A stretch of DNA of 35,295 nucleotides from assembly GCA_033764315.1 (NCBI GenBank), contig JANRJA010000142.1:1-35295 (forward strand). The letters run 5' to 3'. Source of the DNA: Oculatellaceae cyanobacterium bins.114. Lineage in GTDB: Bacteria > Cyanobacteriota > Cyanobacteriia > Elainellales > Elainellaceae. This document shows, piece after piece, positions 30,001-33,000 of the stretch (positions within the stretch are counted from its first letter, which is position 1; each line of letters opens with the position of its first letter). Made by a program: the position numbers.

Positions 30001-33000
30001 CTGGGTGCACTCACCAAAACCACCGCTTTATCACCCACACCTGCGATCGATTGATCATTGGAATTAGAGGCATCTGTCGCGATCGCCTCGTCTCCGGCAA
30101 AGGTGTCAGCAATCATATTTTTTGACCTGACCGAACTCACAGGGGCAGGAGATTGATCAATAGATATATTCTTTCTTAAAGATTCTGCTAACAATTTAGG
30201 AGCCGCAGGGAAGGCAAATAGGAGAGCCAGAGCGATCGCCGGAGTATATTTCTGAAACACCATAAGATAACTACCTGATCAACTCCAATTGTAAATTTTT
30301 GAAAAAGACGTGCTCATTATATAACCCTTTACTCCATGGAAAATGTCTGAGTAGAAATACTTATCACCCAAGTTTTTTTGAATAACTAGGGCTTAGGCAA
30401 AGAGTGCTAAGTAGGATATGTAAATCAATTAAAGCGTGTCTCCTAGCTGTGTCGCCTCTGTGTCACCCGTGCGCGTTGCGCTATCCTCCTTCCCCCCTAA
30501 CTCAGTGGGCTTTCATAAAATGCGGTCAGACCTGAGAGCGGCTTACCCGACGTAGCCTGATGGCATGACGAATGATGAACAATTGACCGATAATTTAGTA
30601 CTTCACAATAGACAGGTAATTAACCATCTTCCCCTCCTACCCTTCACTCCTTAATGCATCATGATAGCGACGGGTCAACCAGCACTACACTATCAGCCAA
30701 AGTACAAGCCTAATCAACTCATTTGTGGTACGGGGCAAACCGCCATTGTGACCGGATGGACGGTGAAAGGGGCGATCGCCAAAAAGTTACACCCCCACGA
30801 ATACGCCGTGATCGGGCAACTCTATAGCCCCACCCGTGGTATTGATCTGTTGGTTCGCAACCTGTTAGCCAACCCTCAGGTACGGTTTATCGTGATTTTA
30901 AACGCCACTAAAGAAGACCAAAATGCAGGAGCATGTGCCTGTTTCATTGATTTCTTGCGATCTAGCGTTGAGCAGGGCAAGACCGACACCGGGCGCGAGT
31001 GTTGGGTGGTGCGATCCGCTATCACAGGCTATATCGATATTGAAATCTCACTCGACGCATTGGAGCACCTGCGCCAGTCGGTCGAATGGAGTGAAGCAAA
31101 GTCAATTGCTGAGGCGGTTCAACAGGTTCAAGCCTATGCCACACGAGGAGCGATCGCTCCCTGGGGAACTGCTCTCACCTTTCCACAAGCCCCATTAACA
31201 CCGACAACCCTTCCAGGCGTGCGTTATGGACACCGCATTGAAGGCAAAACGATTGCTGAAACCTGGGTCAAAATAATTCACCGGATCAAAACAACCGGCA
31301 CCATTCGCCCCACTGCCTATGATGGTCACTGGCAAGAACTGATTGATTTGGTGGCGATTGTCACCGCTGAACCCGATGGATTCTACTTTCCAGACCCTAA
31401 CTATCTCCCCGTCGATCGCCCCTTCATTCAGCAATACATCTCCCAGATCTTGGATGATGCGCCTCTCCGCGAAGGTGTGAAATATACCTATGGGCAACGG
31501 TTGCGATCGTGGTTTGGGCAAGACCAGATTCAACAGGTGATCGAAAAGCTAGCCGCTGATCTCAACTCTGCCAGAGCCGTTATGTCTTTGTGGGATGTGA
31601 ATGACCACGCCGCAGGGGATAGCCCACCCTGTTTGAATCATATTTGGGTGCGAATCATCGATGGAGAACTCTCGCTCACCGCTACCTTTCGCAGCAATGA
31701 TATGTTTTCAGCGTGGGTTGCCAATGCAATGGGCTTGCGGGCATTGCAGCAACACATTCTCAAGGCAGTGAGCGACCTTAGCTCTGTCTCGCTTACATTA
31801 GGCCCGTTAATCACAATTAGCCAGAGTGCCCATATCTACGATGATTGCTGGGAGAACAGCGATCGCCTGATCGAGTCACAATATGCCAAGATCTGCCAGC
31901 AACGAGACTACGCTGACCCCATCGGCAGTTTCACCATTACCGTTCAACCTGACCTGATTGTGATAGAACACTTGACTCCAGGCTCCGGAGAAACGATTAA
32001 CTGCTATTCAGGACGGTCTGCCACCCAACTCTATCGACAGATCGCCACCCATTGCCCCGCCTTGCAACCCGAACACGCTCTCTATCTCGGCGCAGAATTG
32101 CAAAAAGCAGAGCTTGCCCTGACCCGACCTGAGCAATTTAGCTATGAACAAGACAAACCCTTAAAAGGGTTGTAGTCATGGGTCACTCACTCCATCTGCA
32201 ACTATGTTCAGATCCCCGATTTTTGGTGATGCACCCTGGGGGGAATCGGTCTACCGCTCTCCTTCCAAGATACAAGGGGAGACTCTCCCAATACTTGGTT
32301 TCAGTTCCATAGGTTTCAGCTCTATTGAAATACCAGACCTGATTGACAATTGACAACGAACCGTTGACGATAAACGGTTGACCCAACTCCCTACTTCCTT
32401 TTAGCTGATGGATCTGTTACTAAAAGTCAAACTACTCAACGAACATGCTCGCTTGCCCCACTATGCCCATCCTGGAGATGCAGGCTTAGATTTATTCTCA
32501 ACAGTCGAAACAGTCATCGAAGCAGGAAGCAGTGCCCTCATTCCAACAGGTCTAAGTATTCAATTGCCCCCGCACACAGAGGCTCAAGTTAGACCCCGCA
32601 GTGGGCTAGCCCTCAAGCATCAAGTCACAGTTCTCAATACCCCAGGCACAATCGACGAAGGCTATCGCGGAGAAGTTGGAGTTATCTTGATTAACCACGG
32701 TAAGTCACCTTTTCACATCACAATTGGCATGAAAATCGCGCAAATGGTGATCAAACCCGTCTATCCCGTGACGGTGCAAGCCGTTGAAGCGTTAGAGTCA
32801 ACCTCTAGAGGCGAAGGAGGATTTGGCTCTACCGGAGTTTGAGCGATCGCCCCTTCACATCACCTTCTACCTCTCCTGCCAATCTGACCCATTGCCTGAC
32901 CTAATTCATTACTTAAGCCACTACCTAATTTATCTAGAGCAAATAGCTATTCACCCTGACTTTAAAGTTTTTCAGACAGAAGCGTTAACAACCCCTATCT

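Follow-up and report, generated by a model that had tools for sequence, protein, structure and literature searches.

ThyA yields dihydrofolate and forms a coupled unit with the reductase FolA, and ThyX needs no FolA, as set out in one account of these enzymes that also attributes the scant characterisation of archaeal thymidylate synthases to their modified folates (PMC9931769). For methanogens, ThyA biochemistry is described as little known (PMC9012536). In ThyA, Asn177 is reported to select dUMP (PMC13326640), and Leu143 and Trp80 are reported to protect the methylene intermediate while folate delivers the hydride (PMC13326640, PMC4342783). Among 31 cyanobacteria in Table 2 of a 2018 review, 23 have ThyX and 8 have ThyA (PMC5954106), and the cyanobacterial dihydrofolate reductase appears as unidentified in one listing (PMC1971073).

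Here we focus on a cyanobacterial protein in which a short ThyA core of the methanogen type is enclosed by an MtrA-fold domain and a DUF4346 domain. It is a real and widespread variant of thymidylate synthase on whose architecture no paper was found: a literature search, subscription papers and supplements aside, returned no published account of this three-domain fusion or of DUF4346. The family may be included as plain ThyA in the supplementary trees of PMC9931769 or PMC10733785, and databases name its members either "thymidylate synthase" or "DUF4346 domain-containing protein". The present analysis adds the split across 301 genomes, the in-place swap with ThyX and the remnant that it left, the viral copies, the FolA gap and the complementarity with RibD_C.

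The window, meaning the whole stretch of DNA that was analysed, spans 35,295 nucleotides. The synthase gene lies at 30661..32175 (+), an open reading frame of 504 aa, and the dUTPase gene, which supplies dUMP, starts 232 bases downstream on the same strand (32408..32842; NF001862 188.8 bits, cut-off 103). Both genes are thus where the genome-wide survey's note had placed them, side by side, and its NCBIfam values were obtained again (TIGR03283 6.3e-41 at 193-398, MtrA models 7.1e-11 and 1.3e-5, TIGR00284 7.2e-8 at 419-501); all four matches lie under their curated cut-offs. The GC content of the gene is slightly higher than that of the genome (51.6% vs 47.6%), and a promoter and terminator scan gave results at chance level. 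The protein has 1736 relatives among 8000 scored candidates, one of which (P0332) is a synthase fused to dUTPase. Elsewhere in the window, the genes for glucose-6-phosphate dehydrogenase, transaldolase and fructose-1,6-bisphosphatase follow each other in an ordinary series (23925-27879, -), and a DUF4912 protein has two matched stretches (28077-30263, -). Beyond the dUTPase gene lie a HAD hydrolase (33579-34256, +) and a low-complexity protein rich in Gly and Thr (34502-35131, +), for which Pfam gave no match at E 1e-5.

The ThyA core covers approximately residues 186-410 (31216..31890, +), with the codon of the catalytic Cys324 of the PPC motif at 31630..31632 (+). The PF00303 match at 275-407 reaches 56.3 bits, over the cut-off of 24.3, and the core has the thymidylate synthase fold by Foldseek (E 1e-12) and by VIA (Z 18-19 to ThyA). 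The alignment of the PPC and RSxD motifs with solved ThyA, reported in the survey, was reproduced, and the archaeal type that it assigned is supported by TIGR03283 as the best sequence family. Residues were counted in an alignment of 121 rows, made up of the query and 120 of the 150 representatives listed (440-525 aa; 30 were dropped by length). The core residues are kept almost throughout: C324 in 120 rows, R344 in 119, S345 in 121, D347 in 117, N355 in 120, H391 in 120 and Y393 in 118. Asn355 is the equivalent of ThyA Asn177.

The elements that shield the intermediate in canonical ThyA are a different matter. The Leu143 position is Ser321 here; Leu is found in 0 of 120 rows, Ser in 107 of the 120 cyanobacterial copies, and Asp or Glu in 15 of 120 diverse rows, while two canonical ThyA controls both have Leu143. 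The Trp80 loop is missing from the core: in 89 of the 121 rows the span Y259-Y277 measures 17-18 residues, and a Trp occurs there in one. Stand-alone methanogen-type cores lack Leu143 too (Glu in 13 and His in 6; 21 of 27 parsed), and therefore the trait is clade-wide and not tied to the fusion. All eight stand-alone methanogen-type cores scanned pass TIGR03283, and 13 of the 27 stand-alone archaeal-type cores stop two residues past the HxY motif. The fusion itself scores 140.1 against the TIGR03283 cut-off of 174.55, which two of three distant three-domain relatives scanned exceed (P0242, 190.4 bits; P0250, 181.9 bits). In a quick tree the fusion, like the methanogen type, groups apart from canonical ThyA (support 93, not starred), in a topology whose long branches fix neither the donor nor the order of events.

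In the fold ranking of residues 186-410, the first place goes to 9iqc (Z 23.4), a dCMP hydroxylase whose structure contains FAD, followed by the hydroxymethylase MilA (21.4) and then ThyA (19.3). With a hydroxylase and a hydroxymethylase as nearest folds, with Leu143 absent and with the gene common in virus contigs, the protein could be read as a dUMP hydroxymethylase or another base-modifying enzyme and not as a source of dTMP. We consider this extremely unlikely. T4-type hydroxymethylases have an acidic residue at the Leu143 position, where Ser prevails here, and the gene swaps in place with thyX. It also encodes the only PF00303 or PF02511 enzyme of its genome, where PF00303 matched once and PF02511 not at all, in agreement with the survey's claim of a sole thymidylate synthase; 52 of the 53 other carriers have no ThyX. 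Moreover, thymidine kinase is absent from all five carriers tested, four of them single-contig. The fusion is very probably the dTMP synthase of the cell.

The domain that precedes the core was compared with known folds in an AlphaFold2 model of the 504-aa protein, built from 141 sequences (pLDDT 95.7, pTM 0.91). In this confident model, residues 6-170 match MtrA (5laa) with Z 17.6 and an rmsd of 2.5 over 149 residues, and the next unrelated row stands at Z 7.3 (VIA). The domain (approximately residues 8-170; 30682..31170, +) has W33, G52, Y55, G60, N67 and D86 as conserved residues. Its PF04208 (MtrA) match at 49-105 amounts to 13.9 bits, under the cut-off of 25, which several distant relatives pass. 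The survey's MtrA-like N-terminal domain is therefore borne out as a whole-domain fold match. Its own two reservations fared differently: the shortness of the match falls away, as the structure spans residues 6-170, and the missing corrinoid His stands, as His occupies the MtrA His position in only 2 of the 115 rows that have the anchor Asp and is absent in 113. In the fusion family this motif His is swapped for Ser, Gly or Ala. We take the conserved His of MtrA to be its cobalt ligand.

A synthase-free protein, P0380 (genome G097), consists of MtrA joined to DUF4346, with the His of MtrA in place. Because this protein keeps the residue and the fusion family mostly does not, the MtrA-fold domain and DUF4346 are seen as a two-domain unit that encloses the ThyA core and has lost the usual cobalt ligand. 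This synthase-free protein of G097, encoded at L226:4965-6098 (G097:C11), has 378 aa, with a Cys-rich start ahead of the MtrA domain with its intact His and the DUF4346 domain (NF002128 431 bits, under the cut-off of 568), and belongs to a cyanobacterium that uses ThyX. An Atlas cluster also joins PF04208 (95%) and PF14251 (40%) with a score of 0.80, which is a lead only.

The MtrA fold brings to mind a corrinoid-dependent methylation, in which the MtrA-fold domain would bind a cobamide, His472 of DUF4346 would serve as substitute ligand and a methyl group would be relayed. The whole-domain MtrA fold, the His kept in P0380, the presence of His472 in 120 of 121 rows and a CobO-like gene near 32 of 80 loci would all fit. 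However, the His at the MtrA position is gone from nearly every row with the anchor Asp, the core keeps the full residue set for methylene transfer, and a CobO-like gene is found in the same block of ThyX genomes too (L209-L211, L218, L220). We regard this relay as very unlikely. The CobO neighbour was itself rejected as a B12 clue, being part of that block and not specific to the fusion.

The C-terminal domain (residues 419-498; 31915..32154, +) belongs to DUF4346 (PF14251), with 77.6 bits over a cut-off of 29.6 and the invariant D, G, H, YL, E and YxQD; its conserved residues are D419, G422, H472, Y475, E479, Q497 and D498. Here the survey, which had called it a DHPS-like pterin-binding domain, has to be corrected. 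The TIGR00284 match is confined to profile positions 418-497 of 497, a tail of 80 positions that is DUF4346, and the domain of about 90 residues, folded alone, is predicted to consist of three strands and two helices, with no barrel. A DHPS TIM barrel was rejected, as the 91 residues have another fold and no DHPS Pfam family appears at E 0.1. Pterin binding by DUF4346 is putative and comes from the family name only. An older Pfam text is said to describe a DHPS-like M. jannaschii member as having no DHPS activity. Searches with the C-domain alone gave no clear solved relative: the best fold match had Z 6.2, Foldseek had none at E 0.001, and the single sequence match was due to chance. These results show neither a new fold nor the absence of one, and an ESM Atlas search with the domain gave no usable match.

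DUF4346 also occurs as a stand-alone gene, in 54 of 54 Cyanobacteriia sampled vs 0 of the 67 others of the phylum, which are non-photosynthetic relatives. The genome studied here has such a gene, of 127 aa, at G000:C172:45166-45483 (L002:1438-1821, +). In several lineages it often lies about 2 kb from a gene for a stand-alone RibD_C protein, a hint at a role of DUF4346 in folate handling; beyond RibD_C (2 of 19 loci) and a few clusters, no conserved neighbour of the stand-alone gene was found.

The distribution of the fusion was followed through 301 genomes of the phylum, namely its own and 300 that are at least 95% complete, and kin genomes are not independent in these counts. The fusion is found in 54 and ThyX in 246, with both in one and neither in two, which reproduces on a separate sample the near-exclusion that the survey had described. 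The two genomes with neither carry full-length canonical ThyA, one with folA adjacent. The sole double carrier, among the 53 other carriers, has a ThyX whose likeness to most of the other thyX tested is only 24-30%. All carriers belong to one class, where summed family tallies give the fusion to 54 of 144 genomes vs 90 with ThyX. In mixed families the two tallies close: 1 and 2 of 3 in f2, 10 and 9 of 19 in f3, 3 and 2 of 5 in f4, 14 and 4 of 18 in f7, and 22 and 17 less one of 38 in f6. Named carriers include Crocosphaera subtropica ATCC 51142 (cce_0382), Cylindrospermum stagnale PCC 7417 and Anabaena cylindrica. Two genomes of genus g4 have second fusion copies that are split or more divergent (G219:C314:1566-3070; G297:C42 and C104).

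The assembly studied here is 90.7% complete and also has no dcd and no rph orthologue, members of the rph-adk-cobO-dcd block that thyX often adjoins; this is probably an assembly gap. Because these genes are missing as well, the absence of thyX from this genome is weak evidence by itself, as the gene could sit in the unassembled 9%, and the exclusion claim therefore depends on the rest of the sample. Outside the cyanobacteria, the three-domain form extends to approximately 30% identity, with Ca. Kerfeldbacteria and KSB1 as the two labels among 20 proteins looked up. When 31 distant relatives were used as a profile, the search again brought up mainly cyanobacteria.

The two synthases also share a chromosomal slot. 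The neighbours in 80 cyanobacterial fusion loci include dcd (42), dut (15), dCMP deaminase (13) and tmk (4). Twelve thyX regions were examined first and five were added later. In L210 and L211, thyX lies between dcd and a peroxiredoxin-like gene in the orientation of the fusion, which sits likewise in L052, L068 and L073; in L209, L217, L218 and L220, thyX adjoins dcd. The other five of the first 12 regions have the block in part or not at all, and among the five added, L223 and L224 have flanking DNA in common with the fusion slot. The clearest case is L212, where a 46-codon remnant of the fusion gene start (L212:3905-4045; G005:C134) lies directly upstream of thyX, followed by dut and dCMP deaminase, and the flanks are 93-95% identical to the fusion loci L032 and L033 of the same genus. 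This remnant is what the fusion left in genus g4 when thyX displaced it. With the remnant beside the displacing gene, the exchange is not one-way, and outside g4 its direction is not fixed. The survey's statement that the fusion replaces ThyX is thus right in that the two are functional alternatives with a common slot, but one-sided. In L213 and L218 (G089, G077), thyX falls in two pieces within one frame of 604-626 aa, an intein-like insertion pattern, and two-piece matches recur across the thyX search of the phylum.

Viruses carry the gene as well. In IMG/VR, 121 of 133 candidate stretches are relatives of the fusion, and of the 80 viral loci kept (L129-L208), 44 have ribonucleotide reductase alpha nearby and 31 have NblA, pointing to phages of phycobilisome-bearing cyanobacteria. 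The 72 full-length viral ORFs (62 distinct) have all three domains, with W33, Y55, N67 and D86 in 72 of 72 and H472 in 70. FolA or ThyX was found in none of the 29 larger virus records with the gene, 14 of which are at least 90% complete. None of the matching curated records (209 from phages, 22 from plasmids) reaches 80% coverage, and BFVD has no full-length match.

How dihydrofolate would be recycled in carriers is less straightforward. FolA (PF00186) is matched in 20 of 53 carriers, of which 9 are strong (E under 1e-30 over most of the domain) and 11 are weak and partial; strong FolA is thus missing in 44. In the non-carrier set of 80 genomes (10 f17 genomes left out of 90; 133 genomes in all), 13 have a match and 5 a strong one, and the difference between 9 of 53 and 5 of 80 is not significant (p 0.08). 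The only canonical thyA of the class adjoins folA. No FolA was found in the genome studied here, which has RibD_C-family genes; its stand-alone RibD_C gene lies at G000:C93:593-1228 (L042:563-1246, -), directly after an ORF labelled ndhH-like from inspection. In most genomes of genus g4 the match to this gene is split in two by an in-frame insertion near residue 115-120.

The stand-alone RibD_C protein (227 aa, DHFR fold) is found in 49 of the 53 carriers, and the other four all have strong FolA, so that 53 of 53 have one or the other. Across the 133 genomes, RibD_C is missing (7) or broken (1) in 8 of the 14 with strong FolA vs missing in 5 of the 119 others (Fisher p 1.6e-6, kin not independent), and the five genomes that have neither FolA nor RibD_C are all ThyX users. 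The protein resembles Rv2671 (E 2.5e-13), although among solved structures it comes closest to unnamed "conserved proteins" and pyrimidine reductases. Rv2671 is described as an alternative DHFR of low activity (PMC10812664). Given the complementarity and this likeness, the stand-alone RibD_C protein is a candidate for the cyanobacterial dihydrofolate reductase.

Anatomy, residue conservation, distribution and locus swap are supported directly by computation, and a mechanism can be proposed from them. The core would bind dUMP, Cys324 would attack C6 and the methylene would be taken from methylene-tetrahydrofolate as in ThyA, as the conserved residues suggest. The hydride would most likely also come from folate, giving dihydrofolate, which a separate DHFR-fold protein would re-reduce: FolA if present, otherwise the RibD_C protein found in most cyanobacteria, in line with their complementary distribution. 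As the least certain step, the outer domains would most likely form a folate-binding or closing lid absent from the short core; the missing Trp80 loop and the 13 stand-alone cores that end just after HxY speak for such a lid. On balance we lean slightly towards this combination of folate hydride, outside recycling and outer domains as lid. Against it stand the strong FolA in only 9 of 53 carriers and 0 of 29 virus records, the low DHFR activity of Rv2671, Ser at the Leu143 position, and the hydroxylase and hydroxymethylase folds ahead of ThyA.

These same observations could instead mean, with considerably less likelihood, that the synthase is independent of DHFR, with a redox cofactor (flavin, pterin or nicotinamide) held by the MtrA-fold and DUF4346 unit. 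That cofactor might either donate the hydride and leave tetrahydrofolate intact, as in ThyX, or re-reduce dihydrofolate within the chain in the manner of DHFR-TS, a proposal that we hold only tentatively. In its favour, FolA is missing from 44 of 53 carriers, the genome studied here and 29 of 29 virus records; the fusion swaps one for one with a synthase that is described as FolA-free (PMC9931769); and the core has no Leu143/Trp80 seal to guard the transfer of hydride from folate. Moreover, outer-domain residues are near-invariant in the 72 viral ORFs and down to approximately 30% identity, DUF4346 is attached both to the DHPS-like TIGR00284 family and to the synthase, several lineages have its stand-alone gene no more than about 2 kb from that for RibD_C, and the top fold match, 9iqc, is a TS-fold enzyme solved with FAD. 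However, every carrier has FolA or a RibD_C protein, fold searches found no cofactor motif or flavoprotein fold in either outer domain, stand-alone methanogen-type cores lack Leu143 too, and viruses may use the host reductase. Since all 53 carriers have FolA or RibD_C and RibD_C is often lost beside FolA, ordinary folate recycling is the likelier; the RibD_C result lowers the case for a built-in reducing module without removing it. The survey's "third route to dTMP" holds in the sense that this is a third type of enzyme, next to ThyX and canonical ThyA, but overstates a distinct chemistry, ThyA having already been counted in cyanobacteria (PMC5954106).

The family places an archaeal-type core in folate-using, culturable cyanobacteria, and therefore both this core and the life of a ThyA without FolA are easily testable. 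Either outcome would be useful, as it would yield a new reducing module or identify the cyanobacterial dihydrofolate reductase, with RibD_C as candidate. If, as is possible but doubtful, this is a ThyA-fold synthase with no need of DHFR, its reducing equivalents being provided or restored by a repurposed MtrA-fold and DUF4346 unit, the fusion would reveal missing partners of archaeal thymidylate synthases and give a biochemical function to DUF4346, a gene of every Cyanobacteriia genome sampled.

Among known systems, methanogen-type thymidylate synthase (TIGR03283) has the same short core with neither Leu143 nor the Trp80 loop. In contrast to it, the fusion stays under the family cut-off, has two extra domains and is found in oxygenic bacteria and viruses. 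The C1 carrier expected in cyanobacteria is folate and not methanopterin. Canonical ThyA and DHFR-TS share the fold and the dUMP catalytic residues, but the fusion is about 20% identical, lacks Leu143 and the Trp80 loop and usually occurs in genomes with no FolA; unlike bifunctional DHFR-TS, its extra domains are unrelated to DHFR. MtrA and NF002128-type proteins share the fold over 149 residues and the joining of MtrA to DUF4346 with no synthase, whereas the fusion has Ser, Gly or Ala instead of the motif His and scores below all MtrA cut-offs. With ThyX it shares the pathway step, the chromosomal slot and the usual lack of FolA, but the fold is unrelated and the fusion has no recognised flavin site. 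Finally, the TS-fold hydroxymethylases and hydroxylases (MilA, T4 dCH and AfhB, 9iqc) are its top fold matches and have a polar residue at Leu143 as well; the fusion differs from them in having Asn and not Asp at 177, with Asp kept at 169, and in being distributed like a housekeeping dTMP synthase.
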